The notes beneath the pieces were generated by a model, which ran no database searches, was not told where the DNA came from, and saw only the letters and a list, made by a program, of their open reading frames with translations. Source: Psammoneis japonica (taxonomy: Eukaryota). Taken from it: a stretch of 29,732 nucleotides of DNA. How positions within the stretch are numbered: position 1 is the first letter of the stretch; each line of letters opens with the position of its first letter. Below, piece by piece: positions 1 to 29,300 of this stretch. A program made the translations under genes and the position numbers. The stretch is taken from assembly GCA_008632985.1 (NCBI GenBank), contig QPGO01000023.1:186001-215732 (forward strand), in the 5' to 3' direction.

Positions 1-1
1 A

Positions 2-6860: not shown

Positions 6861-6905
6861 GTACAGCACCGTACCGTACGGCAGGCGGACAATGTACAGT
6901 AATGC

Positions 6906-8825
6906 ATGAGAACTAACTTGACAAAGATGTTTTTGGTGTGCGTGCTGCACAAAAAGAGATGCGGGGATAGATGGACATGCTGGACACGCTGGACACGCGT
7001 CACCATCTTGTCTGCAAAGTTGCCACTCTTGACAACAGCCAAGAGGGGGATCGCCAAGGATGACATGGTTTGTGGAGGCGAGCCTGCCACTCCTCCTTTT
7101 CACCACGCCGTTGCAGATGAGAGCTGCTGTGGCAAAGAAAAGCTGGTGCTGCTCTCCAGAGAACTCTGGAGGCAGTGGCAAAAGTTGCTGCACAGCTCTC
7201 TCACAGCTGCAGCTGACAAAACTGCAACAACTCGAGGACCATGAAGGGGCCACCTCTTTGCCACACCTCACATTTTCTTTTTGCTGAAAAGCTGTCTCTC
7301 CAGAGAACTCTGTGGAGGAGAGGGAAAAGTTGCTGCGTGGCTCCCACAGCTTCAGTTGACAAGAAGCAGTGGTGCAACCATGATGGGGTCACCTCTTCAC
7401 CACACCTTGCATTTTCTTTTTGCCGTCCCTCCAGACTTGTGTCATGTGGTCACCTGACCTGTGGCAACATCATCCAGGTGTGCAAAAATCTCTGAGTTTG
7501 GCAGAGTGGTGCATCATCGGACATTTTGAAAACCAGCGCATTGTTGCATTGCATCTGTGACAAGTTGCTTGTCATGCCTCTGGCATGTGGGTCAAGTTGA
7601 CCTGACAAGCAAGACCACCCCCTGCTTCCATTGCCCAGTGACAGGTCTCCTCCCTGTGCTGCACAACAGTGCAAGAAGCCTGCCGATGCCCCACCACCAC
7701 CACCACCACCACACAGCACACACACAAGAATTGTTTGAAACAACATTGCACACATTGGCAAATTGCACAAATGGGTGCATTTGCCTTTTCCCATTTGCGC
7801 ACATGCGAGTTCAGTTTTTTTTTTGCAATTTCAGCATTCAAACGAGGTGGACCACCCAGTGCAAAGGCCAGTGACATGAGACAAAAAGCAACAGCCACAA
7901 CCTCTGCAAAGAAGAAATCACACATCATGCTTGGAGCCAGCAGCCAATGAGAACTTGACAAAGATGTTTGGTCTGTGTGCAGCACAAGAGATGGATGTGG
8001 GGATGGACATGCATCACCAAGTCTTGTCTGCAAAGTTGCCTCTCTTGACAACAGCCATGAGGGGTGCTGTCAGAAAGGATGACATGGCTTTTGGAGCCTG
8101 TCACTTCTCCTTTTCTTCACACCATTGTCTGGATGAGAGCTGTGGCAAAAACAAATGCTCTCCACCCAGACAACTCTGGCTGGAGTGGCAAAAGTTGTTG
8201 TGCAGCTCTCTCACAACCAACTGCAGCTGGCAAACTGCAACAACAAGAGGACCATGAGAAAGGGGCGGGTTGCCTCTTTGTGCCACACCTTGCATTTTCC
8301 TTTTGCAAAAAAGCTGTCCCCAGAGAACTCTGGAGTGGGAAAAGTTGCTGTGCAGATCTCACAGTTTCAGTTGACAAGAAATGATGCAGCCATGATGGAG
8401 TCACCTCTTTGCCCGCCACATCTCCTGTTTTTTTTGTCATCTCCCAGCACCCCACCCCCCTGTGGGGGGAGGACAACCAATTGCTGCTGCTCATTCCACA
8501 TGCACAAGTGACCCATCTTGCTTTGCACTGAAACATGGGTGAGCCCGTTGTGTCATGTGGTCACCTGCGGCAACATCCAGGTGTGGTGCAAAAATCTGAG
8601 TTTCACAGAGTGTGTCATTGGACGTTTTGAAAACCAACACATTTTTGTTTTGCATCTGTGACAAGTTGCTTGCCATGCCTTGGGCAAGTGGGTGAAGAAG
8701 CTGACCTGACAAACAAGATCGCCCGCAATTGCCCAGTCATAACAAATCCCCCTGCAATGTGCAACAGTGCAACAAGAAGCTGGCTTTTGCATCCCCCACC
8801 CTGCTGCACAGCACTCACATGCACA
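6906..8825 (+). repeat. Degenerate tandem duplication (~1.04-kb period; copies ~6906-7730 and ~7948-8825) with an internal ~150-bp subrepeat
   Basis: Shared blocks include atgagaac(taac)ttgacaaagatgttt, tcttgtctgcaaagttgcc.ctcttgacaacagcca, gaggaccatga and gcatctgtgacaagttgcttg.catgcct. In copy 1, ctctccagagaactctg...aaaagttgctgc...cacctctt..ccacacct..cattttctttt occurs twice. Confidence 0.85.
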
Positions 8826-11800
8826 ATGGCAGCTGGTCCTTCACCTCTCCTTCTTTCCAGCCTCTGCAGCAACCAGGCAGCCCTTTTTCTCCACCGTCCA
8901 AATTTCCACCTCTGAGGCAGCAGCCACATTGTTGCCAGGCACTGCCTTGTTCCAGGGCAGCCCTGCCACAGTTGGTGCCAATGATGAAGACAATTGCTTT
9001 CTCCTGCTGAGCTCACAAGAAGCAGCAAAAGTGACAACTCTTCTCCAGCCAAATGTCCTGGAGATTTGAGGTGCTCAACCCAGCTGGTGTCTCTCAGCAT
9101 GGCCCTCCTCTTCCAAAAGGACAAGACTTGTTTCTTTTCCACCCCAGATGAGTTTCCTTTTGCCCTGCCAGCAGCATGTGATGCATCTGCACACTCTCAT
9201 GGCTTGCCTGCCAACAACTTGCAACCTGACTGTCTTGGTTGGTGTGGATGACTCTGTTGTCACTCAACTGATGAACAAAGAGCTTGCCCCCCCCCCAATT
9301 TTGCTCTGACAAGGCTGTTGCCAGCCATGGCCTGCAAGCTCTGCCACCTCTGCTGCTGTCTGTCTGAGGGTCCTTGCCTTGCTGGTTGCCATCGAATTGC
9401 CATTTTGCGTGCACAAATCATGGCATCCAGTTGGCACCCTCTGTCAAAAACCAAGCAAAACTGCCATTGACACACTTTTTGGCATTTTCCCAGCTCTCAA
9501 ACTGAAACCAGTCTGACTTTGCCACCTCATGTTGCAACAAAACAAAAAAGAACTTGCTGAACTCTATGGTTTCAGCACAGCACACAACAATCAAGCAACT
9601 TCAATTGCTGGAGCTTGCGCTTGCATTTCCAGGAAGCCAAGCACTCAACAAATTTGACAGCTTGTCACAAGCCCAACTGCCAAGAAAAATCCCAAAACTT
9701 TTGAGACCAACCCCAGGAGTCCAACAGCAAAGAAGAGCCAGAAGACAGCAGCAAGCAAGGCAGGCAGTGCTCATCAGAAGTCAAGCACAGTGTGGAAATC
9801 ACCCCTGTCATCACATTGATTTCAGCCATGCAGCCATTGCACTTGCAGAAGCACACAGTCTGGGACACTTTGTGCTTGTGTTTGCTTGGTTGAACAACTG
9901 GGAGACAAGCACAAGGAGAAATGTCATCATGAGACAGTGTGGCGCAACCCAAGAGGTGAGCAGTGTGCTGCTCACATCTCCTTGTCCTGAGCACTCCCAT
10001 GTTGTTGCCAACAGAAAGGGTTTCCCCTGTGCACTGGTGCAAAACATCAACAAAACAAAACCCAAAGTCTGCATTTAAAGTGCTGCTGTGCTTCCGCCCT
10101 GGTGCAACTCTGGCAACAAGCTGACCCACACCCCAAGCACATCATGTGATGCAGCAGGGATGTGTGACAATTGGTCAAAATTGATGCCAAAAGGCTGTGG
10201 TGCCTGCCAGAAACAGCTGACAACAACAAAAACAGGGCCAGCACATCAAACAACAAGACTTCAAAAGGAAAATGCCAAATGCTTCAATGGGGCCTTCTTC
10301 CTGGGATTGGGTCTGGCAGCAAAGGTGAGACAGGCAGTCTGGAAGAGTTTCAACATGAGAAGGAATGGGACACAAATTGAGCACCAACTCACACTGAACT
10401 GGGCTCAAACTCATGCTTCTGGGAGCAGCAACAATGGAGGATTGTTCACAGCATGGAGCAGAGAACATAAATGGACAAAGAAAAAGGGGAGTTGTTGATG
10501 CCGGAGAGGCATGGACCAAGAGCAGTTGGCAGTTTTGGCTGGTCAGTCATCCAAAATGACTTTTGAGACACACAGAAAATGTGCTGACTTGTGTTGACAC
10601 TTGTCGGCACAAGGAAGAATGGCCAATGCATGCTGAGTTGGTTTCATCTTCAAACTTCTGAAAACAGCAACAATGGAAGATCATTCACCATGTGACACAG
10701 GAAACTTAGAACAGACAATGGGGAGAAGGGGGGTCATTGACACTTGAGAGGTGTGGAGAGAGAGAGCAATTGGCAGTTTGATGCATTGTCCATCTGAAAT
10801 GACTTGCAGAACATGCAGAATTTGTGCTGAAACTTGTGCAGAAACTTTGCACATGAGAACAGAAAATGCCCAAAAGAATGCTGAGCAATCAACCAAAAGG
10901 GCTTGATGCCAATTGTTTTCCACTGCATGAGATTGCCAATGATCACAGAACAAAGGCATGTCAACAAAAGAACAGGTCTTAACAGGCAGGCAAGAGCCAT
11001 CATTTCACCATCAGAGAAACATGGCATCTGCGCCAGAGCTTGCACAGAAATGCATGCAGAGGGTGTGGCGCTGAAACCAAGGCAGAATTGTGGCACAAAA
11101 CATCAACAGTTCTCTGCACCATTTGTGTGTTCCCTTGAGAAATGGAGGAGCTTGCACATCTTGGCTCTCTTGCTCCCACTGACAGGTCAGTTCAGAGGGA
11201 GTGATTGCTGCAGTGGGGAAGATGCTGCTGTCATTCCATGCATTGTGCAGTTGCTGTGGGGGCAGGGAATTCACAAGGAAACAAACAAGCAAGACTTGCA
11301 GAGCGGAGCACAGCAACATCCATTTTTCATGCCATTGTCAATCATGGAGAAAGATCCAATGGCTGGCTCACATCCAAGTTTCAATTGCTGCTGCTGCACG
11401 CTGTGATCAACATTGTTTTCCTTTCTTTTGGTTGCTCAACAAACTCTGATGCCTCTGCCTGGGTTGGTCATCATCTCTGACACAAGCAAGGAAAGGAGAG
11501 GCAGAATTCATCCAACAGCTTTCAACCCACATGTGCTGGTTTCTTCTTTAGATCTGGCCCACAATCATCTCTGCAAGAGGGAAAATGTCAACTGTCCATG
11601 TCAATGATGGCAACTTCAGGGCAGCCTGTGGCACCACCCTCAGTTCTGTGTGGCTGGACAGCTGCTCTGCAAAAGGCACTTTGAGTGCATGCAGCTTGGA
11701 GCCCACAACAAGACTTGCAGCTCACGTGGATCCCAACCCACTGGCATCATGTTGTGCACTGAGCTCAACTTTCAGGTTGTGTGAGCAAGTTCAGAGGTCT

Positions 11801-12100
11801 TTCAAATTTTTGCGCAAAATGGCAGAACGTGGCACAACCTCACATGAGCAAAGCATGAAGTCAACAATGACCTCTGGCTCCGTCCAATGATGATGATGCA
11901 TGGTTTCATGAAGGCCAATGATCCAGATCAAAGAAGCATGGGTTCCTGGAAATGATTCCAATCATTCAGATTGGGTGGCACTCGCATGGGTTGGAGGAAG
12001 AGGCACTTGGGCTTGGGGCACTTGTGACGTGCGATTGCAGTTGTTGGAAACTCACACCGCACAATGGTTTGAGGGTTGTCCTTTGGCTGGGAGAGATGGA
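6970..12100. other. Heavily eroded repeat/TE-derived domain, depleted of both TpA and CpG; family not recognisable
   Basis: About 7 TpA found by eye in ~5 kb, few CpG, strong TG/CA excess; all ORFs are short, Cys/His/Trp/Gln-rich and nearly Tyr-free. Confidence 0.75.
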
Positions 12101-12513
12101 TTCTCATGAAATCATGGCTTGAACGGCATGTGGACAGTGAGAACGCATTTCGATTGTCCGGAAAAGATGTTGAGAGCCAACATTAGAGTGCATCGTAAAC
12201 AGCTTTCTAAAACTTCTCCGAATTCATTTTGTCCAGCCCATTTGTTTCTCTTCCACCAAACATTGACAGCTCCATCAGTGCTGGGAATGATCTTGTTTAC
12301 AACGTAGTCAACCGTTTCATTTGCCGACGCGTTGGGCTTTTCACACAGACTGTTTGGTCCCATCCACCCACCTGTGGCGTGCAAGTGACATCCTGGCACC
12401 ATTGTTTCCGTGTACATTGCTGTAAGAGCTCTTGCATCGTCATGTTGAGACGCTTCCATGAAAATGTTTTGAATCACACCGGACTTGACCAACCGTGACG
12501 CTCCGCGAAACAC

Positions 12514-12618
12514 CTGTTGGAAAATGACAGAAGCGGGGAATGGCAAGACAACAACATGAGCACACTGTGAGATGGCATGAGCAACTCGAGAAAAACAAAA
12601 CCAAGATGTAACTCGCAC
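12514..12618 (-). other. Spliceosomal intron (105 nt) in the FkbM gene
   Basis: Minus strand CAG|GTGCGAGT...TTTTCCAACAG|GTG; splicing gives DVEGFEPQVFRGA, matching the usual FkbM spacing. Confidence 0.75.
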
Positions 12619-12642
12619 CTGCGGCTCAAAGCCTTCTACATC

Positions 12643-12647
12643 CACCT
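12643..12647 (+). repeat. Left 5-bp target-site duplication CACCT
   Basis: CACCT directly before the 5' LTR; identical copy at 20535-20539. Confidence 0.95.
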
Positions 12648-12958
12648 TGACAGGGATCCCACATGACCCTTTTACATTGGAACCTCATGTTCGAAGATGG
12701 CACATACATTCAGTCGGGTTTGTGACTGAAATTCACTGATCTTTCGGAGTGTTTCAACAACCTGTCGGAATCCATCCGTTCTGACAGCCATGTCGATTCT
12801 GAGACCAGCTCAGAATCTCTCACAACTTCTAGACAAAGCATTGTCGCAAGGCACTGTTTCTAGACCAGGCTCTAGCTTGCTCTCTCCTGTCAGTGCACGG
12901 ACTTGATCACCCAAGACACTCTCAGGCGAGCACTCAGTTCTTGCCCATTTTCCTGTCA
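12648..12958 (+). repeat. 5' LTR (311 bp)
   Basis: Begins TGACAGGGATCCC, ends CTGTCA; ~93% identical to 20225-20534 by manual alignment. Confidence 0.96.
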
Positions 12959-15900
12959 TGGTTGCAACACTTCCGGTTCGGTCCAACACGACCACTTCTT
13001 TCAAGCCGAGTGCTGCTCATGCGTCTCGCAATGCTTCCTCTCCCAAGCCGTCTTCGCACGCACTTTCTTCGCATGAAGTTTTTACAGTCCACGGACGCTC
13101 CGTCGATGACGTCCCCATGGCCAACCCTCGTGACCGTTGTCACAATGTTGATGCTGGCTCCATTGTCCAGCATGCTGGCATGTACACCACACGTCGTCGT
13201 CGTTCTCGTCGCGTGACCCAGGGTGCACACCACCCTGCCACCCGTTGCATCAAGCGCACATCTGCGCCACGCTCCAAGCCGCCTTCCAAGCCCTCGCAGC
13301 AGGCCCCCAGGCGCAACAAGGTCTCCACCCGTCGCTCTCAACGTGCCGTCAACCGCACGCTCTCTAGCTCCACCGACACTGTGGATTTTGAGCGCCGTGT
13401 TCGCTCATCTGTTCGTGGCCTTCGCAACGGCAAACCCGTCACTTTGCCCAGGACCCTTCATGCTGTTTCGCAGCCGACTCGCAAGCGCACCAAGACCGCT
13501 CGCCGTCGTACCCAACGCGCTCTTCGTCGCTCTGTTGCTTCGGTCAAACGCACCCCGGCTCCTGCTCTGCCTGCACCTGACGAGCTCCGTCTCTCTCGTG
13601 TCAAAGCTGACGTCCGCGCCGCTCTCAGCGAACGTCTTGCTCAGGCCCAGGCCCGCGTTGATCGTCTCCAACTCGAGACTGAAAAGCTCTACTCCAACTT
13701 TCGCGTTGTCAAGCACTCTCGTGCTCGACTTGACACGTTGTTGGATCAAGCCACTCACGACGAATCCGAGTTTTTCAACCCCGAACACAATCTCTGTGAC
13801 CGCGCGATCCGCGACCAATTGACAGATGTCGACACATCCCTTGACATTTTACATGTCGATTTGGACACTTTGCACAACCGCATTCCGAAACCTTCCGCAC
13901 GCGACAACCCCGCGCCCTCTGCTCACTTTTCTCGGCCGCGCCCCCGAAAACGTCGAACCAAATCACGCTCGCGGAAATCACTCCGGATGACTCCCAACCA
14001 GGAACACCATGCCCTATGATCCCACCGTCTCCGCCACGGCATGTCCCGCTCCAAACCCTTTTATCATCCAGACGCTGATTTTTTTTTTCAGCCTGAAACA
14101 AGAAAGTGTCAAGACAGTGGCCCGCAGCAGCCTCCGCACCCCTCTTCGGATCACTTCATCTACGTCACCGTTGAAACCGTACACTCCGACGATGAGCACG
14201 GTGCATCAGCTCAAGGGGGTCTCAACCCATTGCTGACGACCCGCCACCCACTCCCACTGTCACTGCACCACTGGGGTCCCCTGAGGAATTCCCCCCGCTT
14301 TCATCTCCAACGGATCAAGCCACTCCTGCTCTCTCCCATGTCGACCCGTCATCAACCTCCGCGACACCGCTTTTTGATGTTGTCACTCCCATGTTGAACG
14401 AAATGGATGAAGCACTTGACAAGGCTCTTGCCTCTCCTGCTCACACTCCTGCAGTCGACTCACCTTCTCCAGCTTCGCCCGACACCTCTGACGCGTCTGA
14501 CCCATCCGTCGACCAAGACATCAACGTCCAGGTTCGTCTCGTCACCTTCGAGGCTCTCTTCGACACCCAACAAGCTCTTGCACCGTTTTTCCATCGTGAG
14601 AATGAACGTGCCGTTGAGCTTCGCGACACTGTCGATTCGGCAAAAACGTCTTTCGAGCGCCTCCTTCGTTGACACCCTGCTTGCGAAGCAAGCACTCTAG
14701 CACTTCGTCGTTTTCAGGACATGATGCGCGAAGCCGAGTCCCTTTACTTGGAACTCATGTTCCACCTTGCCCTCACCCCACGACCACACCCCGCTTGCCC
14801 GTCCGCCCACCACTCATCAGTCGACGACACTGTTTTCTCTCATGTTGCCAGCGAGCGCACCTCGGAATCCTTGTCGAATTCACTGATGAAGCATGCATCC
14901 TGTGCAAATTTGCGCACTCTGAAGCACCATCAGAATCCGCACACACGACGACAAAAATTTCATGCATTCTTGAATGACTTGCGTGGGACCTTCGCATCAT
15001 TTCCGGAATTCAATGGCACACTCAATGATTTTCCCTCTGTCCCTCTCCGCCCACTTCCAGACCATGCCGACAGCGCCCTCCATGCTCTCCTCTGGATGCA
15101 TGTGGACGCAACGCACCAATCTGACATTTCTGACCTTGGATCGCGTTCTGGCAAACTTGCTCTCGAAGAACTCCAGCTACGCTGTGCGCCCATCACTCAG
15201 GAACACAGCAACCACTGCTCAAACGACTGCCTCCAAGTCTTTCGCAACTCGGACGAGTCCGCCAGCAGCTTTATCCAACGGTTTGAACGAAAACTCCGGA
15301 GCCACAAGAACGCCGGCCTTCCCGTCAAGACTGATGCGGATGTCAGTGCCCATTTTCTCGGCCAAATGGGCAGCCATCCCCGCTGCGACGCCACCATCAA
15401 GCAATTCGAATCCGAATTTCGCACTGCTGCTCGTCTCTCCTCTGCCACCGCTCCTCGATTTAAGGACATCCGGCAAACGTTTTATGACATCGACGAGCAG
15501 CATCACAACCAACAGCATCGTGATCGGCTCTCGCATGGCTCCCGCTCCCGCTCTCACAACAACCATGCTCACCTTGCTACCGTCAAACGCGCTCCTCGGA
15601 ATGCACAACGACAGCAACAGCAGCACCGTTGCCCAAACCAACCTAACGCAACCGAGATCTGCAACCACTGTGGAAAACGCAACCACAATGCCTCCGTCTG
15701 TCGCTCTCGGCTCCGTGATCTGAAGCAGGGCACACCCAAAGATCAACCTGCTGCCAAACCTCCTCGCGACCTCAGCGAAGTCACGTGCCATCACTGCAAA
15801 AAAAAGGGGCACCTTCGTCCCAACTGTCCCGAACTCGCCAAGGACTCCAAACAGACCGCTCTCGCAGCCACTGCACCTGCCATGCACTGCCGCGCAAAGG

Positions 15901-16340
15901 CACCTCCCCCGAAGGACCAAATCATTTTCTGCGCTGCTCGAGCTGACATGGAGGATGCTCACTCTTGTTGTCCCTCCTCTTCCGACTCTATCCCAACCCT
16001 GGCACCACGCCACGTCTCCTTTGATGACGACTCATCTGCCTGCTGCTCCACGAGTGACTCGATCGCATCTTCCTCTGCTCATGGAACTGTGCCTGCCATC
16101 ACTCTCCAGGACCTCCTCGATGACACCTCTTCGATTGATGGCAACGACACTCTCTCCGCCAACTTGCACTCCACTGGTCCTCCGCCCCTTGAACATCATG
16201 ATTGCGACTCCAGCACGGAATCATCATCCACTGTGCCATCTTTGGTCCGTCGCCCATGCGAGCCGGATGACACCACGGCCTGCCCTTTTGATGAACCGCC
16301 CCCCCGGGAACTCTCCCGAGGAATCACCAGTCTGCTTTGA
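12958..16340 (+). pseudogene. gag: Copia gag region: Arg-rich/coiled-coil N-terminal part, gag core and two CCHC zinc knuckles; frameshifted
   Basis: ORF 14721-16340 contains CNHCGKRNHNASVC and CHHCKKKGHLRPNC (CX2CX4HX4C) and ESASSFIQRFE; upstream ORF 12958-14019 is basic with a heptad-like stretch. Confidence 0.8.
12959..12970 (+). promoter_or_regulatory. Putative primer-binding site TGGTTGCAACAC
   Basis: TGG (complement of tRNA CCA) immediately after the 5' LTR; cognate tRNA not identified. Confidence 0.55.
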
Positions 16341-19300
16341 CTTCCACAACGCTTTCACCACGGCATCTTACGCATCCGGGCACACTGCAATCTCTGACGA
16401 TGACATCGACTCCGTCACATCTGATCTCAGCTGTGACTCTGTCGATGCGGTCCACACCATCCCCCGTTTCTCATGCAACACCGCTGACTGTCACGTTCAA
16501 ATTGCCTGCATGGCCGACGATCCCAACCAGTGCCGACCTCACCAACCACCCCCGCGACTCCGACCTCACGGACATCAGCAGTTGGTTTGTCAACTCTGGT
16601 GCCTCTTCCCATTTCGTTCGTCATGACTCACTTGACAACAGCACCTCCTGTCACGTCCCTGTTGTTGTTGCAGACGGCACCACCGTTCATGCCACGAAAG
16701 TTGGATCCGTCACCCTCCGTTTTCAAGACGACCAAGGACATCCGGTCAACCTTGTTCTCGATCGCATCTGTTGCATCCCCGGCCTCAACCGGAACTTTTT
16801 TTCGGCACCCTCCTTCACGGCCAATGAACTCTTCAATGTCCGAATCACTGCCAATGTCACGACACTTGACTTTGGCGACGGACACACATTCAGCTTCCCG
16901 ATTCTCCATCACAGGCGCTCCTGTCACGATGTCACAGCTGCCACAGAACCGGAACCCACTTCCGACCTCCCGTTGACGGAAGCAACCGACGCCCAAGGCT
17001 CATCAAAACCAACGACACATGCAATCGACCTTGACCTTGCAGGTCGCCGTTTCGGTTGTCGCTCCTCTCAGAGCCTTTTGGCGGGCACAGTTGGCAAAGT
17101 TTGGCACGACTGCCACATTGCCCCCGGGACTGACGACTGTCTCGACAACGCGCGCATCGCCATCTCCCGAAAGCGCAACCGCGTTAAGTGTGACCCGACT
17201 GAACCACCACACACATTTTCACGTGTGTTTGTGGACACAATTCCCAACCCTCACACAGTCGCACTCACCCCAAAAACGTCTTTTCCCTGCCACCTCTTTT
17301 TGGCAACCCACAAAGGACACTGCTGCAGTGTTCATGGCCTCGAGAGCCCATCATCTGGCAACATCATCGCCGCCTTTAAATCATGGATGACCGAAGCACA
17401 ATCCCAGGGACAAATCCAAGACATAAACTTCATCCGCGCGGACTCCGCAACATGTTTTCTGTCCTCCGAATTTCTTGCCTTTGGTGAAGACAATGGAATC
17501 AAGGTCGAAGTTGCCGCTCCACGTCACCAGGAGCAGAACGGGGTCGCGGAACGCATGTGGCAAGTCGCAAGCCGGATGATTCGTTGCCTCCTTGTCAACG
17601 CACGACTCTTGGCACACTTCTACCACCATGCATTTGTCCATGCTGTCGCCATCCTGAACGTTCTCCCAGCCAAAGGCACGCGGCTCCCTGATGGCTCCCT
17701 GGCTACACCGCACTGCCATGCATTCAACAGACTTCCAAAGATTGGCAATTTTCGGGTCTTTGGATGTCCCGTCACTTTTGACAGATGCCAACCTCTCAAC
17801 CCGGCAACTCGTTGCCCGACCACCACCCAACAACAGATTCAACGTCGATCTCGTGGCATTCATGTGGGTTTCGCACCAAACCAGGCTGGCCACCTCATCT
17901 GTGTTCCTGAGGGCATCGGCACCAAGAATCTGATTGTAGCGTGTGACGCTGTCTTCGACGAACTTTTGAATCATCACTCGTGCACGACCACGTCCCCTTC
18001 TCTGGCGCACTCCTGATCCGGAACATCTCCAACGATGCCTCCGGCCTCAAGACATGCACCGAGAATCCGGTGGATGAACACACGGCACTGTTCAAGATTT
18101 CCTTGACGTTGACTCACCCCCTCATTCCTCCACTCTCACCGAAGCGCCTCCGGAATCCGATGAATCCGATTCAGCGCCACCATCCCCTGCACCCGCTACA
18201 ACCGGTCTCAGACGATCCACTCGCACCAACGCTGGCCTCCGCACTTCCGTGCGCTTCGCGGACGAGGAGCAACTCTACGCCATAACCTCCTCCACTCCCC
18301 CAGTCAATCTCCTCGAACAAACTCTCTTCGACGACTCGCTCGCCATGGAATCTGCGTGCAGCGCCTCCGTCGAATCTCCTTGGCCTGACTGCAATTGGTG
18401 CAAATGCCCGGATCCTTTGCAACAGGCCTTGGAAGCCGTCCAGGCCACCTCTTCAATTCCCATTGATGACCACTTGCCCGTTCCCCGCTCTTTTCGAGCC
18501 ATCCTCAGACAACCTCCTGCGATTCGCGATGCCTGGCTTCGTGCCGTCCGATCTGAGCTCAAGAACCTCATCGTGGACAATGAAACTTTTGCTCTTCATG
18601 AATGTCCCCGTCCAGACGATGAGATCATTGGCACCACACTTGCTCTGCGTGCCAAGGAGAAATCCGACGGCTCTCTGGAGAAACTCAAGGCTCGACACTG
18701 TGCGCGCGGCGACATGCAACGCAAATCAGCCGATGATGACAATTGGTCACCAAACGCATCCTCTCGTGCCATCAAGCTCTTCCTGGCTTTTGCAGCAAAG
18801 GCCAAACGACACGTCAAGAATGGTGATTTCGTCGGTGCTTGCCTTCAAGCCCCCGCTCGCGGCCGCCCATTTGTTCGATTCGACCCGATTCTGAAGCAAC
18901 ATTTTCCTGAATTTGCTGAACATTTTGGTGTGCCCCTCCGTCTCAAGAAAGGCATGTGCGGGACCATCCGCAGCGGTCTTTGGTGGTCAACCGAGCTCTC
19001 CGAATTTTTGCTTGCCCAAGGACACACCAATTCCAAGGCAGATCCCACCTTCTTTGCCAAGCACTTCCCCGACGGCTCACATCTCAAGCTCATTTTCTAC
19101 ACGGATGATGTCATCTACTTTGGGTCTCACGACAGAGTCGAAAGGACTTGAGAATCTCACACAATCCAGGTGCAACATCACATTCAACGGTGACGTCACC
19201 TGGTTCTTGCAGATGCGCATTCACCGATGTTCCGACGGCTCCTTCTCTCTCGACCAACATCGACATGTGCGCAATCTCCTCAAGCGGTTCCTCACTCCCA

Positions 19301-20187
19301 CCTCGCCTTGGGGCAGCCCCAGCTTTCAGGATGCCCCAGCCCCCGTTGATTGTGTGTGCTCCAAAGCGAATCAACCCAAGGACACCGCCGAATCCAAGCA
19401 AATCGCGAACAAGTGTCCTGGTCTCCATTTTCGATCCGCTGTCTGCTCCATCCTTTATCTCGCCTGCAACACTCGCGCTGACATTCTCTGGATCACCTGC
19501 AAACTTGCAAAGGCTTGCACCAACCCTGGCATGAAGGACTTTGATGCTCTCGTCCACCTTTTTGGCCATCTCCGCAAACATCAAGACCTCGCCATCAAAT
19601 TTTATTCTGATCCCACCGCGAGCCCTGTTCACGCGATTTGCGAAGCTCACAACATCAGTCATTCTGAATTTGTGGTCTTCACCGATGCCAGCTGGCAGGA
19701 TTGTCCGGACACCGCCAAGTCAACCGTTGGATTTATGGTCTACTTCAATGGGGCAATGGTGGAAGCCAATTCCACTGTCCCAACCCCTGTCGCAATGTCC
19801 ACTGCTGAATCCGAGTGGATGGGAGCCTGCACTGGCGCTGTGGCTGTCGCTCACCTGCGCATGTTGGCCTGCGACTTCACCTTCCTTGGCACTCGCCACT
19901 GCTCCATTGACTCCCAGCGACTGTCCGCCACTCCCACAATCCTCATGTTGGACAACCAAGCCGCAGCCCAAATGGCCCAAAACGACCAACAAACTCAACG
20001 AACCCGACACATTGAGCGACGCTTCCAACATGTCCGCGAAGGGCAGCGACTCGGTCATCACTTGCTTGTTTGGGTTCCCGCGGAAAGTCAATTGGCGGAC
20101 TGCCTCACCAAAACTCAATGTGCAGACAAAATTTGGGTCATGGTCGACCGTGTCCTGTGGCGCCCACCTGCACACATGCTGTCATGA
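16337..20187 (+). pseudogene. pol: Copia pol: protease, integrase, reverse transcriptase, RNase H; frameshifted and hypermutated
   Basis: PR WFVNSGASSH (catalytic D->N at 16592); INT FVDT...IRADSA...HQEQNGVAERM; RT KLKARHCARGD...DFVGACLQA...LKKGMCG...FYTDDV (19098-19109); RNaseH FTDASW...STAESE...DNQAA...RTRHIERRFQHVRE...QLADCLTK. Confidence 0.95.
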
Positions 20188-20216
20188 GCCCCTTCTCATC
20201 TTCCCTCATTCGGTTC

Positions 20217-20224
20217 AAGGGGGG
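20217..20224 (+). promoter_or_regulatory. Polypurine tract AAGGGGGG
   Basis: Directly abuts the 3' LTR. Confidence 0.85.
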
Positions 20225-20534
20225 TGACAGGGATCCCACATGACCCTTTTACATTGGAACCTCATGTTCGAAGACAGTGCATGTGTTCAGTCGGGTTTGT
20301 GACTGAAATTCACTGATCTTTCGGAGTGTTTCAACAACCTGTCGGAATCCATCCGTTCTGACAGCCATGTCGATTCTGAGACTAGCTCAGAATCTCTCAC
20401 AACTTCTAGACAAAGCATCATTGCAAGGTGCTGTTTCTAGATTAGGCTCTAGCTCACTCTCTCCTGTCAGTGCACGGACTTGATCACCCAAGACACTCTC
20501 AGGCGAGTGCCCAGTTCTTACCCATTTACTGTCA
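20225..20534 (+). repeat. 3' LTR (310 bp)
   Basis: TGACAGGGATCCC...CTGTCA, followed by CACCT. Confidence 0.96.
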
Positions 20535-20539
20535 CACCT
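20535..20539 (+). repeat. Right 5-bp target-site duplication CACCT
   Basis: Matches 12643-12647. Confidence 0.95.
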
Positions 20540-21410
20540 TGAGAACAGGAATCAACGGTCGATTCTTGAACCAGCCTCTGTCTTCCGCAAATTGATCCAG
20601 TGGAAAAACCTGAACCGTGGCGGTTGCATTCTTTGCTCGTCCCTTTCTGACAAAACTCCCAGTTCCAGGATTTTTCAAATCACCCACGCATAGATCCAAT
20701 GCATCTTCTCTTGCGCCAACACCGTCATTGTAAAAGTTGATGCTGCTCTTTCCTTGATCAGCACTCTCATGCAGCAACGACCGCTCTTCTGCGCCACTGC
20801 TCCATTCGTTAAATTTGATGGACTGGCAAATGCGAATGCCATTCACAATGTTGGGTTCAAACACATCAACATGGCACCCCAAGGATGCAGAGAGGTGAGA
20901 AAACCATCCAATGTTCCCACCAACATCCAAGACACGAGCGTTTGGATGTTTCCAAGTCTCGTCCTCTAGCAAGACTTCTCGGAACGCTTCCGTCAACACC
21001 TCCTCGTAGTGCTGTCCGTGCTTAAAAATGCAAAACCGCAGTCCATCATGTTCTTTGTTGTGCAACGACACATAGAATGGTGGATCCAATGCAGTCAATC
21101 GAAGGAAGATTTGACCATCGTTGGGGTCTTTTATGGGACAGTCATCGCGATGAATGTTGCTCAGCAAATTCTTGCAATCAAAGGGCTTGACACCAGCAAA
21201 GTGTTGCACAATAGACAGTGTCTGCTCCAGGTATCTATCATTGTAATTCTCTGGAAAAGAAACGGTTTTCCAACTTACTAGCACAGTGATGAAGGCACCC
21301 AAAGCAACAACGCAAGAAAAAGAAATTGAGTCGACGGCGGCTTCGCCGGTTGGCGATTCCTCGTTAGGAACATTTTTTGTTTGATTGAACACTGTAGCTT
21401 TTTCTTGCAT
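20535..21410 (-). pseudogene. FkbM-family SAM-dependent methyltransferase, 5' part (type II membrane anchor), disrupted by the copia element
   Basis: ATG 21410; TM VVALGAFITVLVSW; SAM motif RVLDVGGNIGWFS...VDVFEPN; ...VFPLDQF...IPVLKV running into the LTR. Confidence 0.9.
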
Positions 21411-21660: not shown

Positions 21661-22873
21661 ATGAAGTTTTCTACAAAAAGACGACGAAGGAGGCGACTCC
21701 TACAAATTTTGTTGTTCTTCTTGACAGATTTCTTTTTCTTATATCATTTCCTTCACCCCGCAAGCTTCCGATCCGAGTCGACAATTACAGAACCAAGAAT
21801 TCCTTCGTTGTTCGATGAGCTGTTCGATGCTCCAAATAATAACACCATGTCGAAACTGAATGTGACACTTGCAACGACCATATACCACTTAGGATGGGAC
21901 AACCATGTGGGTCGGACCAATAATCATCTTACTACAATCCTACACGCTCTCGACTTGGCCTTTGATCTGCATGGTGACATTGCGAATGACGGTTCCAACT
22001 GCATTTTCGCTGTGGCTGTTTCTGGTTGGGCGTATGAGACGCTCAGAAAGTTTTTCTTTGACGAAAATACAGCAGAAGACTGGGATCTCAGGTTGGAACA
22101 AACGGTCCCCATTATTCACTTTGATCGAATCAATCAATTGCCCGGAGAAAAAAGGCTCGTCAAGCTTGGAGTCCATCCTACTACTTTTTACTACACAAGA
22201 GACCATCTCAGCAAAGCGTCAGTTGATCGCATTGAGAAACGAAGACGATTGATTCTGGGACAGCTGTTTTGCCATGTGTCCAAACGAAATCTTGAGACGG
22301 TCAACCTCCTCAAGGCACACTTGGACAAAATTACATATGCAAAGGAAGATGAGCATCTTCGGGGCAAGTACATGGTGGTTCATTCTCGATGGCTGGAGGG
22401 ACAATGTTATTGGCGTGTCGGGGACAAGCTGCCTCTGGATGAATGCGATATGAAACCAAGCTACATTAAAGATATTCTTCGTTCATTGGGCCTGCTCGGG
22501 CGCATACCAATCGTCGTCATCAGTGACATGCAGAGGCCCGAGATACTGCGAGTGCCCTCAAAAATGATGAAGAGATTGGTCGTCACGTGATTATCCCGGC
22601 TTTGACCCTCGATTCAGCACGACCAATTCGTCAATTTCGGTAGAGAGCGACATGATGATTGCCATAAAGAGTGACATTTTTGTTGGCACAAGAGCGAGTA
22701 GCATGGCAGTCATGGTTGGTCTGGTTCGGGTACTGTCAGGAGCAGACCCAAACAGCAATTATTTGTACGTCACACGGAATGATGATGAAAATTTGGAAGT
22801 TTGTGGCGAATGCATCTTTTTTTGCAATGGCAAGAGGTCAGCCATATGCGGCGCGAGGGAAGTATATCCATAG
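21661..22873 (+). CDS. Type II membrane glycosyltransferase, GDP-fucose O-fucosyltransferase-like (GT-B); one apparent frameshift near 22550-22620
   Basis: Basic tail plus TM (KRRRRRRLLQILLFFLTDFFFLYHFL), GRTNNHL, YMVVHSRWLEGQC, IVVISD, then DMMIAIKSDIFVGTRASSMA (D..I...SD.FVGT..SS motif of fucosyltransferase-type GTs). Confidence 0.7.
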
Positions 22874-23149
22874 ATGCATGTCATCCTCGCTCTCACTGTG
22901 TCGAGGCGAGATCCGCCATAGACCGTGTAGAGCTTAATTGGTCGGATTCAGTCCCACTTGAAAGACAAGAAGTGCACCCATGTTGTGTCGTATCTAACTC
23001 TATTAGTAAATGAAAACTATTTTCTCAACAAGTGGCCAGATCACAAAGGGAACTCTCGAAAGAACAAGCTGCTGAATTGGGGCGAGGTCTTGATGCTTGA
23101 TGATGCTCCGACCGTGGCACCTTATCACAAGGGTCATGATCCGGACTGA

Positions 23150-26100
23150 GCTAAGCTGGTTTTCATCATGCAGCGACATGAGAGAATGACTTATGAACAA
23201 GAGGATCTGTGTGCACCTTCACTCGATTTGTCTCACACTGCAAAGAAAGCTGCCATCTGGCTAAACTCTTCATGCTCTTCTTTGAGACAATCAAGAACAT
23301 TGAGAGTGTGTTTGCCAAAAAGAGCTCACTTCCATTCATTCTGCAGAGAGCTTGCTGCAAGTCATTCTGCAACAAAATCAGCATCATCAAACTTCCTGTT
23401 TTGCCCTGGCATTCTCTGGAGCTGGCAACAGCAGGTGGAGCAGCCCACAGAGGACTGCTTCAGACTTTGACTCCACTGGATGCTGGACCAAGAAGTGAAG
23501 ACATGGTTGGCCATTTGCAATCAGGTTTGTTTGCATGCCTTCCCACGGGGCAACAAGCTCACCATGGGGCAGCAGCGCAAATGAGAGCTGCTGTTCATCA
23601 GCAAAGATGCAGCTGCTTTGATGGAAGCCAAAGCCATTCTTCTGGCACCAATGTCCACTGTGTGGACGTCTGACTCTTGTTCATGCCCTTCTGGCATTTT
23701 GCCTGAGAGATGCTCATGCAGAATTTTGAACAATCCTTGTGTTCCACAGCAGCAACACTGAGCCAAGCCCAAAGTGCACATCTTGGGAATGCAATGACTC
23801 TTTGGAAATGCCCAACACCTTTCAAATTTGTTTTCTCCCAGCAGCTTGTTTGAGAATGTCCTGCAGCTTCATTTTGACTTGCAAGGCAGGCAACCAGAAA
23901 ATCCTGCAAGTTCAGACATTTGATGCCTGCCCAGATGACAATTGGCTTGCTCAAAATGATGCAAACAAAGCTTTTGTGCTTTGTGCTTCTTGAGGCAGCA
24001 ATTGTGCCTGCAGCACTGCTCTCAACCAAACATTTTGTGCAGTGCAGTTGGGCATGGAGCATTCCACCAGTGCCATCATCTGTGGTCAGTGGTTTTCCAG
24101 CATGCTTGCCATTTTCATGATGACTCTCGATTGATGCATGCCAAGAAGACAGAGTGGCATTTGGTGCTGTCAATGCTCAGAAAATGCAGTCAATGCCCAG
24201 CTGTCAGCAACCCCTGTGGCTCCTCAATGAACAACATGGGGAAATTGTGAGAGACTGATGCAGCTCAGTGCTTTGACAGCTGTGGCCATGCTCACATCTG
24301 CATCAAGAAAACAGCTTGACTTGGCCATGTGGATGACCTCTCATCTTTGCTGAGAGACTTTTGCAGGTGGAGAGAGCTGAGAACAACAATCACTCACAGA
24401 GCACATGACTGGCAGGTTGTTTTCATTTAGCACACCACCAACATCCATGCCAGAAATGCAGGGGCTGCCAAAATTTGGAAAAAGACAGGCAAGCGGCCCC
24501 ACTTGTGCACCAGCATTGTGGCAGCAGAGAGGAAATGAACAAAGCCTTTGTTGAGGCTGAGATGGTCAAATGTGCAACACAGGCCTTGCCAGCTGCCCAA
24601 GCAGCAGAGTGCATTGAAGCCCCTCCTTGAGTCCAAGCCATTCATTTTTCAATGCATCTGTTGGCATCACAATGTGTGCCATTGCAGCTCTTGTTTTCCA
24701 GATCAATCAAGCATCATCAGAAGGGAGAGAGATGGAGCTCACAATGAAGGGTCACAAGGGGTGGCTTTTTTCATCATGGAATTGTTGAAGCAGTTCCTTT
24801 GGTTTTGGCATGAAGCAAGCGTCAATGACTGGTGCCTTTTTTTTACAGGGTGTGTGCTTGTCAAAGTGTGGCCTCCATGTCTGGGCAAGATGATCCTCCA
24901 CAGACTTGGTCACATTTTTTCAGTGAGCACATCCACAACATTGGTTTTTTTGAAATGTGTTTGCAATGAGGCAGCTTAAAAACATGGCAGCGAACAAACT
25001 TCTGCTTCTTCACCAACAGCATGAAAGCAAGAGCCCCAAAGGACTTTTTCTTTGTCAAAAAATCTCAACACTGAAAAGACCGGGTGGCATTGCAAATTGG
25101 CTTTTGTCACTTGCCAAATGATGCCCAGTGGTGGAAGTGGGTGACAAACATCTTTTTTTTGGCATTGTCAGTTGCTGCCAAATCTGTTGAACAATGCCAA
25201 AGTCCTGAACATTGTGTTCCCAAAGCAATTCACACAATGTGCAAGTCTGCGCAAGCTGTCAGGGCTCTCACCTTGAAATGTGTTCAACAAAGATGCATCA
25301 GATGACATTTCCAATGCACCAAGCACTGCAACTTTAGAGCACCAAAACATGTGTCATGCACTCTTGCAGGTTGAAAATCGTGCATTTCAGCTGGCGCAAA
25401 ATGTGGCAGATGCAGGCAACACACTGCCCCAACTGTGCAAGGGGCAAATTCAGCTCAAGACAAGGCAGTGTTTCAGTTGTGTGAGGGGGGCAAGTCTGGC
25501 TTGCCAAGACAATTCTTGGTGGAGATTGGCTCACAAGCCCAACTTGGCATCACCCCCAACTGCCACAAACAGCAAACCCCACACAATGGCTGTGACATTC
25601 AATCCTGGCACAGCTCTGCAAATTTGGGTGCTGTGACCACTCCAATCTGATGACAAGAAGAGTGTTCTCAATGTTTCAGATGAAGACTGTCAATTTGATG
25701 GAAGACACTGCAGGCCAACAAAAGCAGCCACACCAAAGAAAAGTGCTGACTGCCACGAGGGGGGGGGGACAAGTTGCAACACCTTTTGGAACAAGTGCCA
25801 ACAGAAATGAGTGATGGCCTCATCAAAGATTTTCAATGGACAGCTTGTTGCGTTCATTTTTGACATGCCAGCAGAAACTCGGCATTGTGCTGCTTGCGCA
25901 ATTTCAAGTGGGACGATGCTGAAATGGCAGTTGCCCATCAGCTCATTCAAAAATTTGCACGATGCCAACAGCACTTTCACGATGATGATGCGGCGGCGGT
26001 GTCAGCACTTTCCCACAGCCATGCCACAGCACATCTTTCTTCATGTGACAACACAGATGATTGTTGATGGTTGATTCAGGAGAATGGTCCATTTTGCGCA

Positions 26101-29100
26101 AACCACAGGAGTTTTGTTGATGCATGAATTCAGCATCACACACGGTTGGCCTGTCAACTTGTTCTTGCGGCTGTGTTTCTGTGGATGTGTGAACAGCATG
26201 CGGTGCCTTTACACTGCTGACACTTGCAGTGGTTGGATCCTTTGCATTGCTGCCACTTTTGGTGGTTGGGAGCCTTTGCACTGTTGCAGAAGGATGGTTG
26301 GAGCATTTGTGCTGCTGCAGAAGGACCGTTGGAGTCTTTGCACTGCCTCAGAAAGGATGGTTGGAGCCTTGGTGCTGCTGCCACTTGTGATGGCTGGAGT
26401 CTTTGCATTGCTGCCACTTGTGGTGGTTGGGAGCCTTTGTGCTGCTGCAGAAGGATGGTTGGAGCCTTTGTGCCACTGCAGAAGGACCGCTGGGGCCTTT
26501 GTGCTGCTTCAGAAAGGACGGTTGGAGCTTTGGCGCCATTGCCACCTCAGGTGGTTGTGGTCTTTGTGTTGCTGCCTCTTGTGGTGGTTGGAAGCCTTTG
26601 TGCTGCTACAGATGGTTGATTGGAGCCTTCATGCTGCTGCAGAAGGACAGTTGGGGCATTTGCACTGCTTCAGAACGGACTTCAGAAAGGACGGTTGGAG
26701 CTTTGGCGCTGTTGCCACCTTTGGTGGTTGTGGTCTTTGTGTTGCTGCCTCTTGTGGTGGTTGGAAGCCTTTGCACTGCTGCAGATGGTTGGCTGGAGCA
26801 TGTGTGCTGCTGCAGAAGGACAGTTGGGGCATTTGTGCTGCTTCAGAATGGACAGTTGAGCCTTGGCGCTGTTGCCACCTTTGGTGGTTGGAGTCTTTGC
26901 ATTGCTGCCTCTTGTGGTGGTTAGAAGCCTTTGTGCTGCTGCAGATGGTTGATTGGAGCCTTCATGCTGCTGCAGAAGAAGGACAGTTGGGGCATTTGCA
27001 CTGCTTCAGAAAGGACAGATGGAGCCTTGGTGCTGTTGCCACCTTTGGTGGTTGGAGTCTTTGCATTGCTGCCTCTTGTGGTGGTTGGGAGCCTTTGCAC
27101 TGCTGCAGAATGATGGTTGGAGCCTTTGTGCTGCTGCAGAAGGACATTTAGATCTTTGCACTCCTTCAGAAAGGACGGATGGAGCCTTGCAGCACTGCCT
27201 TGCTTGTGGTGAGTGGGAGCCTTTGCGCTGCTGAAAAAGGATGGTTGCAGCCTTTGCACTGCTTCAGAAGGACAGTTGGACCATTTGCACTGCTTCAGAA
27301 AGGACGGTCAGAGACTTTGCATTGAGAATCCGAGCAATGACAGTGACACTGCCGGTGGCAACACTTGTCGTGAACCAGCTACAATCAAACAACAACCATT
27401 GAAAATGATGATGAAAATCAAATGAGTGGGTTTTGCATGCAAGCCAGAATGTTGGCACATTGTCACATGCAGAAACAATGCTGTGGTCAACATCGAATTG
27501 GAAGAAACTGCAAATCACAGCCTGTCATTGCACCACCATTGCCACACCCGGCAATTTCTCACGTGCTGGTTTGATGGATCTTCGAGATTGCCGCATGGAG
27601 CCACACAGAAATGAGCAAGCAGAATCCCACATGGTTTGCACTGGCATGCCAAAAATGAAACTCGACAAGCTGTCCATTTTGCACTGAGGTTGGCAGAGAC
27701 AAGAGTGGGCCAAAATGCCCTGCACCAGCGAGTGTTGCAGCTTGATTTTCCTTTTTCCTGGAAAACTCAACCCACTGGAGCAGCCTTCAAACCATCCACT
27801 TTTGGGCAATGCACAAAATGATGGATTTTGGAGTGCCCCCCCCCCCCCCCCCCATTGCAAAAGCACCAAGTGTGACTTTAAGTTTTCTGTGGCCAGTTGA
27901 GCAAGGTGCCAAGAAGAAAGCATGAAAATGGGGTCTCAAAGACCTCCTCCCCTTGCAAGTTTAGCCCAAACCCCAAATGAGCTGAAGGGAAAGACTGCCA
28001 TCAGCACCAGCATGGCACACTGTTCCACTGTGCAGTTTTGGCAAAGACTGGAAACAGCATGCAAACCATGGCAACCATGCATGTGGCATTTTGCTCATGA
28101 CAGTGGCAAAGGCACCATCAACCCCCAGGTGCCTCTTTGCTGATACAAAAAGTCAAGTGGTGCAAAAAGTCAAGGCCCAAGTGTCTTTTGGGCACCAACA
28201 GTGCTCTGAAAGAATCTGTTCTGCCTGTCCTGAAATTCACCAGCCCCACAGTGCAAGCTTCTGAGGCCATTGAAGCAGTGCTCTTGCAACAACAGCCAGC
28301 ACTGGCAGCTCATGATCTCAAGCCACGAAGTGGGGTTTTGACAAAAGCCCAACACTGCAAACTCTCTTCCTGCAGAAGGAACTCAAGACAGCTGAGGAGG
28401 CATTTTGGAGCAGCAGACACTGAATCTCCAAGCTCAGACCCAAATGTTGGAGACTGACAATTCACCCTGACCCATCACCAAATGAACAAATTTGCCACAT
28501 GCATGCATTGCATTTCAAATGATTCAATCATCATGGGGTTCTGCAGAGCGTTTTGTCAAGTGGAGAGTTAAAGAGCCCACAAGCAGCAAACGAAGGGGAA
28601 GCAGCAAGAGGAGGTGCAAAAAGAGCTGCAGGGGTGGGAGCAAAGAAGAGGCACACAAGACAAGGCACAGGGCATTTTAAAGAAGGAACAGGAGATGCAT
28701 CAGTGTGAAGTTTGGAGAGGAATCAGAGAGCATGGGCAGAAAGGTGATCATGAACAACGTTGCAGCTGAGAGTTTGGGTTGCCCACACACTGAGATGGTG
28801 CGCAGAGGAGCGGCAGGAGGAGCCGAAACGGTCGGCAGCAATTTGATGCCAGCCAAAGTCAGTGGAGGATAAGAGCACAGATGGTGAAGCAAGATCATGA
28901 GAGAAGGCAATGCAGGAGGGATCGGAGCCTTGGAAAGCAGCGGAGTCGAGCTGAGGAGGCTTGGGGTGGTGAGGAGCAGAGAGCAGGGGAGGAGGAGCCA
29001 AAAAGGCAGGAAGCGATGAAAGAAGAAACCAAGACCACCAAGATCATCAACAGCAAAAGGAAGGAAGAAGATCCCATCATCAATGAGAGACTGAATGGTG

Positions 29101-29300
29101 AGGGAGCCTTCGGAAGAGGAGGCAGCATGTCCAAGAAACTTTGACCTCGTGCTTGTGTGGTGTGCCTCACCCAGTTAGAACTGGAGAGGAAGGAGCAGGC
29201 AGACCGGGAGGAGGGCGAAGGGGAGCTTTGGGGATGGCGACATCGACAGCAATGCAATGGTGATGGGAAGGGGCGGCAACGGAGGCGGGAGGAGGGATGG
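23150..29300. other. Second heavily eroded repeat/TE-derived domain, TpA- and CpG-depleted
   Basis: About 19 TpA counted by eye in ~6 kb, TG/CA excess, Tyr-poor Cys/His-rich spurious ORFs in all frames; no recognisable domain. Confidence 0.75.
26200..27320. repeat. Minisatellite of ~30-34-bp units (core ggttggagcctttg(ca/tg/cg)ctgc) organised as a ~160-bp five-unit higher-order repeat
   Basis: Near-identical ~160-bp blocks start at about 26513, 26685, 26849 and 27011, with more degenerate copies on both sides. Confidence 0.9.

Follow-up and report, generated by a model that had tools for sequence, protein, structure and literature searches.

Composition of the window

The stretch analysed here, called the window, comprises 29,732 nucleotides of Psammoneis japonica contig QPGO01000023.1 and carries a young Ty1/copia long terminal repeat (LTR) retrotransposon together with two older blocks of DNA, designated A and C. 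These three domains have been subject to hypermutation of TpA to CpA or TpG, which acted at the DNA level, after integration and on either strand, and the few TpA dinucleotides that remain are distributed unevenly with respect to their flanking bases.

Dinucleotide observed/expected (o/e) ratios, computed in 1 kb bins along the whole window, separated three composition states: unique gene-bearing DNA, the two old, virtually TpA-free blocks, and the copia domain. In unique DNA (1–6900 and ~21100–23100), TA o/e was 0.47–0.70 and CG o/e was ~0.9–1.3. The old blocks (~6970–12180 and 23270–29200) had TA o/e of 0.00–0.11, CG o/e of 0.06–0.25 and CA/TG o/e of 1.5–2.2, while the copia domain (12648–20534) combined a TA o/e of 0.02–0.19 with a CG o/e of ~1. 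In approximately 19 of the 30 bins TA o/e did not exceed 0.21 and CA/TG was raised, forming clustered TpA-poor, CpA+TpG-rich tracts. TpA loss thus sits in mobile-type DNA (the copia element with its target-site duplication, LTRs and pol domains) and in the sharp-edged old blocks, and host genes are spared. The old-block edges lie at ~6970 and ~23270, the left one resolved to within ~100 bp, and the adjoining DNA shows no TpA deficit. The segment 6600–6900, which directly adjoins block A, is very TA-rich, with 21–27 TpA per 200 bp. Rfam and tRNA scans of the window gave no matches.

Hypermutation of the copia element after integration

The element and its insertion site comprise the following features.

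12648..20534, + strand: Ty1/copia LTR retrotransposon, frameshifted, with 48 TpA in 7.9 kb and normal CpG
12648..12958, + strand: 5′ LTR, with TG..CA ends, identified by alignment to the 3′ LTR
20225..20534, + strand: 3′ LTR, identified by alignment to the 5′ LTR
12643..12647, + strand: left copy of the target-site duplication CACCT, a perfect 5 bp match to the right copy
20535..20539, + strand: right copy of the target-site duplication CACCT, a perfect 5 bp match to the left copy
12830..12876, + strand: three CTAG sites in the 5′ LTR (12830, 12861 and 12873), with partners at 20407, 20438 and 20450 in the 3′ LTR
12181..12642, no strand: copia 5′ flank with a partial TpA deficit, 9 TpA against 18.0 expected (Poisson P=0.015)
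20540..21100, no strand: copia 3′ flank with a TpA deficit, 7 TpA against 21.9 expected (Poisson P=2.2e-4)

The copia pol region contains the Pfam domains RVT_2, Pol_BBD and SH3_retrovirus, and the polypurine tract is AAGGGGGG. Frameshifts are evident from tblastn against five long relatives (P0031–P0035), in which matches fell in frames 3, 2, 1, 3 and 1. These nearest relatives of the copia polyprotein are single open reading frames (ORFs) of 1570–2524 residues on metagenome contigs of 7.5–10.7 kb, an unusual length for polyproteins of the Ty1/copia type. Lost stop codons do not account for this length, since Tyr makes up a normal 3.0–3.5 % of their residues.

The two LTRs of a retrotransposon are identical at insertion. 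Over 300 aligned bases, the 5′ and 3′ LTRs differed at 21 positions, all of which were transitions and 19 of which lay within pyrimidine–purine (Y–R) steps. Seven dinucleotides paired CA with TG between the LTRs, and four paired TA with CA or TG, such that 18 of the 21 differences fell at TA-derived steps and three elsewhere. CpG was otherwise intact, with eight shared CG sites and one CG/TG difference, so a CA/TG pair represents an ancestral TA that was hit separately in the two LTRs, on opposite strands. Given identity at insertion and the preponderance of TA-derived differences, the TpA to CpA/TpG changes arose in chromosomal DNA after integration.

The protein sequence carries the same imprint. 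At the 33 alignment columns where at least three of P0031–P0035 agree on Tyr, copia has Cys in 11, His in seven, Phe in five, Tyr in four and another residue in six; thus Cys or His occupies 18 of 33 conserved Tyr positions. Other copies of this DNA were found among contigs of a public run (X1), which contains 83 % of the window's words and whose contigs were aligned to 9001–29000. The differing places listed (40 of 2191) were selected for states specific to the window and do not represent all differences fairly; among them, at 11483/4, 14503/4, 15392/3 and 18086/7, other copies had TG in place of the window's CA.

An empty insertion site is also present in run X1, where three contigs join 12642 directly to 20535. 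The X1 contigs flanking the insertion have a depth of 30–32, about half of that over the single-copy segment 23080–25848 (61.5). Although its LTRs have diverged by 7 %, the copia insertion may still be polymorphic or heterozygous. In both flanks CA/TG is raised alongside the TpA deficit, and CpG is near normal in the 5′ flank (12181–12642). The deficit in the ~0.5 kb around copia, which includes the minus-strand ORF 20532–21431, may represent spill-over of hypermutation.

The copia sense strand (13000–20000) has an excess of C over G, with a GC skew of approximately −0.2 to −0.33, and a G+C content of 54–59 % compared with 44–53 % in the host. Changes from TA to CA or TG account for only part of this C excess and G+C content. 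The CpG share of Y–R steps in copia is ~0.1 above that of relatives in every class.

Dependence of TpA loss on flanking bases in the copia element

TpA sites were classified by the purine (R) or pyrimidine (Y) on either side. Among inferred ancestral TpA in the LTRs, the copies that had mutated were nine of ten for RTAY, two of two for RTAR, five of eight for YTAY and two of ten for YTAR, and the difference between RTAY and YTAR was significant (Fisher P=0.0055). This tally is blind to sites at which both LTRs took the same product, so mutable classes are under-counted. The three CTAG sites that the initial annotation had reported as kept in both LTRs are present at 12830/20407, 12861/20438 and 12873/20450.

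Expected class frequencies for the whole element were taken from the sense strand of 25 unmutated relatives (4196 TpA; YTAR, YTAY, RTAR and RTAY shares of 0.165, 0.357, 0.166 and 0.312). No hypermutation was found among the metagenome relatives of copia (0 of 80 loci; TA o/e 0.48–1.03), which serve as an unmutated reference only. The 47 TpA in copia comprised 14 YTAR, 26 YTAY, three RTAR and four RTAY against 7.8, 16.8, 7.8 and 14.7 expected (chi-squared P=1.2e-4). The effect of the 5′ base was strong (P=7e-5), with 5′ A at three sites against 14.2 expected and 5′ G at four against 8.7. The effect of the 3′ base was weak (P=0.024) and consisted of a depletion of TAT and an enrichment of TAG, with no depletion of plus-strand TAC. 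CTAG was the most over-represented tetranucleotide, with nine sites against the 1.9 expected from the relatives. Conserved Tyr codons followed the same pattern: those preceded by a purine had become four Cys and four His with no Tyr left, while those preceded by a pyrimidine gave seven Cys, three His and four Tyr, such that all four surviving codons have a 5′ pyrimidine. The young copia element therefore supports flank-dependent loss with independent and more direct evidence, though not at the level of purine/pyrimidine classes throughout.

The strand asymmetry in copia (26 YTAY against three RTAR, where the relatives predict ~2:1) was considered as a further signal and is not claimed, given that Cys and His are found at 11 and seven of the conserved Tyr positions.

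Structure and CpG content of the old blocks

The old blocks and the array within them are as follows.

6970..12180, no strand: old hypermutated block A, with seven TpA in 5.2 kb, TA o/e 0.00–0.06, CG o/e 0.06–0.20 and CA/TG o/e 1.6–2.0
23270..29200, no strand: old hypermutated block C, with 16 TpA in 5.9 kb, TA o/e 0.01–0.11 and CG o/e 0.07–0.25
26205..27320, + strand: tandem array of 161 bp units with a 31–33 bp sub-period, within block C, used to polarise three TpA

Block A contains TpA at 8740, 9565, 10076, 10468, 10707, 10980 and 11549 and nowhere else, and includes a high-copy repeat at ~9668–11001 with a summed X1 contig depth of 854–1740. Part of block C (23675–25675) is single-copy at a likeness of at least 80 % (X1 depth 61.5), and one X1 contig of 2768 bases spans 23080–25848 with five differences. 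Pfam searches of 22 old-block ORFs gave no family above threshold and hence no reverse-transcriptase remnant.

CpG is depleted in the old blocks only and is intact in the TpA-poor but young copia, which indicates that TpA is lost much faster than CpG decays. Correspondingly, the signature of 5-methylcytosine decay (CpG deficit with TpG/CpA excess) was found in the old blocks and was absent from copia. In several columns of the tandem array, units with CG stand beside units with CA or TG, a pattern of CpG decay after amplification. The hypermutated domains were probably also cytosine-methylated; CpG decay, however, cannot remove TpA. CA/TG differences within these CpG-poor blocks can derive from either CG or TA and were excluded from the context analysis. 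Two pairs of paralogous segments in block A (6915–7397/7952–8409 and 7437–7678/8548–8776) were tried as polarisers and set aside, as they contained only three and two CA/TG differences; these segments were duplicated after the main wave of hypermutation.

Flanking bases of the remaining TpA in the old blocks

The initial annotation had counted 26 TpA in 8700–11600 and 23150–29200 and found most of them to be YTAR. A recount gave 16 YTAR, six YTAY, three RTAR and one RTAY, which reproduces its figures of 16, 9 and 1 for the YTAR, mixed and RTAY classes. The excess of YTAR over a context-blind 1:2:1 ratio is significant (P=8.6e-5). Two of the accompanying statements require qualification. The absence of GTA is correct for the plus strand, but five of the 26 sites are TAC (24844, 26210, 26607, 27380 and 28144), equivalent to GTA on the minus strand. 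The description of the sites as surviving does not apply to at least three of them (26607, 26922 and 27149), which are new G to A changes in the tandem array.

The initial annotation had named the loss of the YTAR excess on normalization to background as the outcome that would refute it. The background for the NTAN classes was the window's own unique DNA (9.1 kb, 342 TpA), in which YTAR is the rarest class (41 sites, 12 %, against 93, 102 and 106 for the other three), probably due to the presence of a stop codon on both strands of such sites. Since YTAR is rarest in the background, normalization sharpens the excess in the old blocks, and the test became stronger (binomial P=2.9e-9). A second null took account of the fact that transitions preserve purine/pyrimidine class, by combining the R/Y skeleton of the blocks with the background TpA share of each class (p0=0.121 for YTAR). 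Within 6970–12180 and 23270–29200, which contain 23 TpA, 14 were YTAR (P=3.9e-8 under this null).

From the R/Y skeleton, the expected numbers of ancestral TpA in the old blocks are 47 YTAR, 105 YTAY, 130 RTAR and 108 RTAY, giving estimated survival of 0.30, 0.048, 0.023 and 0.009, respectively. The corresponding removal rates, obtained by simple division of the old-block counts, are ~1 : 3.4 : 6 : 14 for YTAR : YTAY : RTAR : RTAY. When the 23 sites were read as half-sites from both strands, there were 25 TA-A, 11 TA-G, five TA-T and five TA-C, compared with 140, 137, 193 and 214 in the background. The old blocks and copia agree in having ATA/TAT as their most sensitive half-site, and CTAG is the most resistant site in copia. 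A null in which all TpA are new and derive from CpA or TpG, with the YTAR-generating contexts making up 22 % of CA+TG in the blocks, was also rejected (P=1.8e-5). The rejection of neutral creation means that the old blocks are best read as a steady state between creation of TpA and class-specific removal.

Direction of the base changes

The products in the old blocks were asymmetric with respect to the flanks, with 259 CA and 414 TG at Y.Y steps and 449 CA and 282 TG at R.R steps, giving a log odds ratio (OR) of 0.93 ± 0.11. Background composition predicts a log OR of 0.32 (0.15–0.48) if the products are symmetric, of 0.96 (0.78–1.14) if TAY becomes TGY and RTA becomes RCA, and a negative value under the opposite rule. 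Every sub-region of the old blocks had a log OR of 0.68–1.00. These base counts favour a rule in which the changed base would be the one adjoining the favourable flank (TAY to TGY, RTA to RCA). Polarisable CpG changes at Y.Y steps in copia, although few, were TG in two cases and CA in three among the differing places listed (40 of 2191), with no signal of biased CpG decay.

Unique DNA (1–6800 and 20600–22900) has a product bias in the same direction as the hypermutation (YTGY over YCAY, RCAR over RTGR), with a log OR of 0.48 overall and of 0.61 ± 0.17 in 1–6800, and its TA o/e is no higher than 0.55–0.70. Codon usage alone could account for this, or it may be a weak trace of the process across the genome.

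Evaluation of alternative explanations

These data establish that the process is specific for the dinucleotide, follows integration and affects both strands, and that the TpA left behind depend on their flanks. The reading that joins these points, namely TpA hypermutation of integrated DNA in three domains, with T-A-Y/R-T-A half-sites hit faster and the old blocks at steady state, is considered likely. The proposal of the initial annotation, that the mutator favours TAY or RTA and spares sites unfavourable on both strands, holds at its core for the old blocks and in part for copia, where it does not extend to the interior YTAR sites or to TAC on the plus strand.

Several observations weigh against the joint reading. 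Among interior copia sites YTAR stands at expectation (six against 5.8) and the excess falls on YTAY (23 against 12.5). Over copia as a whole, 3′ C on the plus strand is not depleted (23 against 17.3). These exceptions make the purine/pyrimidine rule an approximation. In the tandem array, all three TpA that can be polarised (26607, 26922 and 27149) are unit-specific G to A changes at positions where the other six aligned units carry G, and as these TpA are new the removal bias in the old blocks follows only through the steady-state argument. The expected ancestral counts derive from host genes or from relatives just 35–54 % identical in protein, and the samples are small, with 23 to 48 sites. 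CpG decay feeds the same products, and a fully biased CpG model predicts a log OR of 1.21 (0.98–1.42), which is not cleanly separated from the value observed; unique DNA itself has a log OR of 0.48. The product asymmetry in copia is weak (log OR 0.18 ± 0.17, with 0.0 in the relatives), several copia YTAY sites gave CA, and comparison of copia products with those of the relatives is unreliable owing to a CpG fraction ~0.1 higher in every class.

A creation bias could in principle give the same contexts if hypermutation were long over and had erased TpA, such that YTAR now marks the places where C to T changes occur, for instance through methylation outside CpG or a YCAR-directed cytosine deaminase. 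This would accord with the three polarised array TpA being G to A changes and with the heavy CpG decay of the old blocks, which implies that cytosine methylation acted there. YCAR and YTGR, however, make up just 22 % of block CA+TG, a share too low for neutral creation to hold (P=1.8e-5 and 7.3e-5); the three polarised events occurred at CCA, CCA and GCA on the C strand, with no single motif, and the young copia, in which CpG is intact, displays flank-dependent loss directly. A bias in creation alone is consequently an unlikely explanation. Similar, though marginally greater, weight is given to a palindrome-like recognition, which is still rather unlikely, in which a double-strand binder would recognize the whole of RTAY in the manner of a restriction-modification site and mutate either strand at random, with half-matches hit less often and no strand-wise trinucleotide rule. 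The class order of RTAY, mixed and YTAR sites fits this model equally well, and so do the nearly symmetric copia products (log OR 0.18 ± 0.17), YTAY having given both CA and TG. The old blocks speak against it, with a log OR of 0.93 ± 0.11, and 0.68 or more in each sub-region, where symmetry predicts 0.32, as do the Tyr codons with a 5′ pyrimidine, which became Cys in seven cases and His in three.

Two further possibilities fare worse. Editing of retrotransposon transcripts from adenosine to inosine by an ADAR-like enzyme, fixed by reverse transcription, would suit a retrotransposon as the clearest case, and ADARs are described as favouring U before the edited A (Discussion of bioRxiv 10.64898/2026.01.13.699255). 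Yet LTRs that were identical at insertion differ by independent TA to CA and TA to TG changes, both strands were hit, the flanks of the insertion are also TpA-poor, the old blocks lack a reverse-transcriptase remnant (Pfam, 22 ORFs), and the data require no double-stranded RNA structure, which leaves RNA editing very unlikely. Background composition or chance, whereby YTAR would simply be the commonest TpA context or 26 sites would be too few, draws on the small sample and on nothing else after testing; with YTAR the rarest class in unique DNA (41 of 342) and all four nulls rejected (P<=3e-4), it is exceedingly improbable.

Proposed mechanism and candidate enzymes

In the joint reading of hypermutation with half-site preference, a process acting on integrated genomic DNA would convert TpA to CpA or TpG, i.e. 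A:T to G:C, on either strand, and its targets in the window would be the two old CpG-poor blocks and the one young Ty1/copia insertion. The rate on each strand would be set by the base adjoining the mutated one, with T-A-Y (or its partner R-T-A) changed several-fold faster than T-A-R. RTAY would then present two good half-sites and be almost extinct, YTAY and RTAR would present one each, and YTAR, with none, would persist, or linger once made anew by ordinary C to T changes at CpA/TpG. The TpA content of the old blocks would be at steady state, with TpA created slowly and removed according to context. Such a preference could be produced by an enzyme that flips out one base and reads its neighbours at −1 and +1, either an adenine deaminase at T-A-Y or a thymine modifier at R-T-A, and both would fit the data alike.

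The native site of TadA is U-A-C-G in tRNA-Arg, and the TadA/ADAT-like candidate put forward speculatively in the initial annotation would be compatible with the motif. A T precedes the target A, and a 3′ pyrimidine is supported by the old-block half-sites and products, but in copia only TAT is depleted and plus-strand TAC is not. No gene of TadA/ADAT-type deaminase fold (HxE...PCxxC) was present among the window's domain-search results. A TadA variant has been reported to edit A in YAC (PMC13109818). For the chlorarachniophyte Bigelowiella natans, a preprint proposes an ADAT2 homologue as the agent of TpA hypermutation (bioRxiv 10.64898/2026.01.13.699255), while amphioxus ADAT2, the one ADAT2 shown to edit DNA, is reported to prefer GAA for adenine rather than TA (PMC10354150).

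A more specific scenario is offered tentatively and on present data is doubtful as a whole: this organism would be a second algal-type eukaryote with a Bigelowiella-like, TpA-destroying defence, in which a base-flipping, TadA-like (U-A-C) adenine deaminase converts T-A-Y to T-G-Y after integration, spills over by ~0.5 kb into flanking genes, and marks domains whose CpG is later eroded by cytosine methylation.

Implications and comparison with known systems

Hypermutation at TpA in invading DNA has been described once so far, in one chlorarachniophyte (2026 preprint), and literature searches for other reports of it returned the B. natans preprint alone. Flank dependence was found neither in the literature searched nor in the main text of that preprint, to which the comparison is confined. 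The dinucleotide rule and the idea of a defence are thus already in print; flank dependence adds mechanistic detail, and the retrotransposon shows action after integration. The window contributes the same footprint, saturated, in another organism, an LTR retrotransposon target whose LTR pair proves that the process acts after integration, and, in the flank dependence, a first constraint on the enzyme. A T-A-Y/R-T-A rule would leave as candidates adenine deaminases or thymine modifiers able to read the base on each side, and argues against the precedent of a GAA-preferring ADAT2. If the interpretation is true, the enzyme would be a natural double-strand-context adenine editor serving as immunity against transposons, and a natural enzyme making A:T to G:C changes in chromosomal DNA would be of interest to base-editing work.

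APOBEC3 resembles the present case as a mutagenic defence against retroelements in which a deaminase reads a short flanking motif. It differs in targeting cytosine on minus-strand cDNA before integration, which yields one-stranded G to A changes, in contrast to the A:T to G:C changes on both strands after integration seen here. TadA and ADAT2–ADAT3 share a target adenine preceded by U or T, but amphioxus ADAT2 is reported to act at GAA (PMC10354150) and plus-strand TAC in copia is not depleted.

Repeat-induced point mutation (RIP), a process of ascomycete fungi, is similar in producing DNA-level, dinucleotide-specific, near-saturating transitions in mobile DNA, with possible spill-over into flanks. 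Its signature of TpA excess and CpA/TpG deficit is the opposite of that observed, as RIP turns CpA/TpG into TpA and enriches TpA, whereas here TpA is near zero and CpA/TpG is doubled. As part of block C is single-copy at a likeness of at least 80 % and the target described for B. natans is also single-copy, duplication may not be the trigger.

The closest parallel is with B. natans, where two integrated viral regions gathered 231 de novo mutations, 230 of which were A to G or T to C, all at TpA, with a de novo rate of ~1e-7 to 1e-6 per site per generation (Mettrop et al. 2026, bioRxiv 10.64898/2026.01.13.699255). Its targets are integrated giant-virus and virophage DNA, and domains of the reverse-transcriptase and DDE types are over-represented among its TpA-poor genes (bioRxiv 10.64898/2026.01.13.699255). 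Both systems, as far as the preprint's main text describes its own, show near-exclusive A:T to G:C change at TpA to give TpG/CpA, confined to foreign or mobile DNA and in clustered TpA-poor, CpA+TpG-rich tracts. They differ in organism, the best matches of the host proteins here, from metagenomes or transcriptomes, being 56–84 % identical and a sequence atlas pointing to Chlorophyta for one gene and Haptophyta for another, and in CpG, which is also depleted in the old targets of the window and is not mentioned in the main text of the preprint. The clearest target here is, moreover, an LTR retrotransposon whose two LTRs allow dating.

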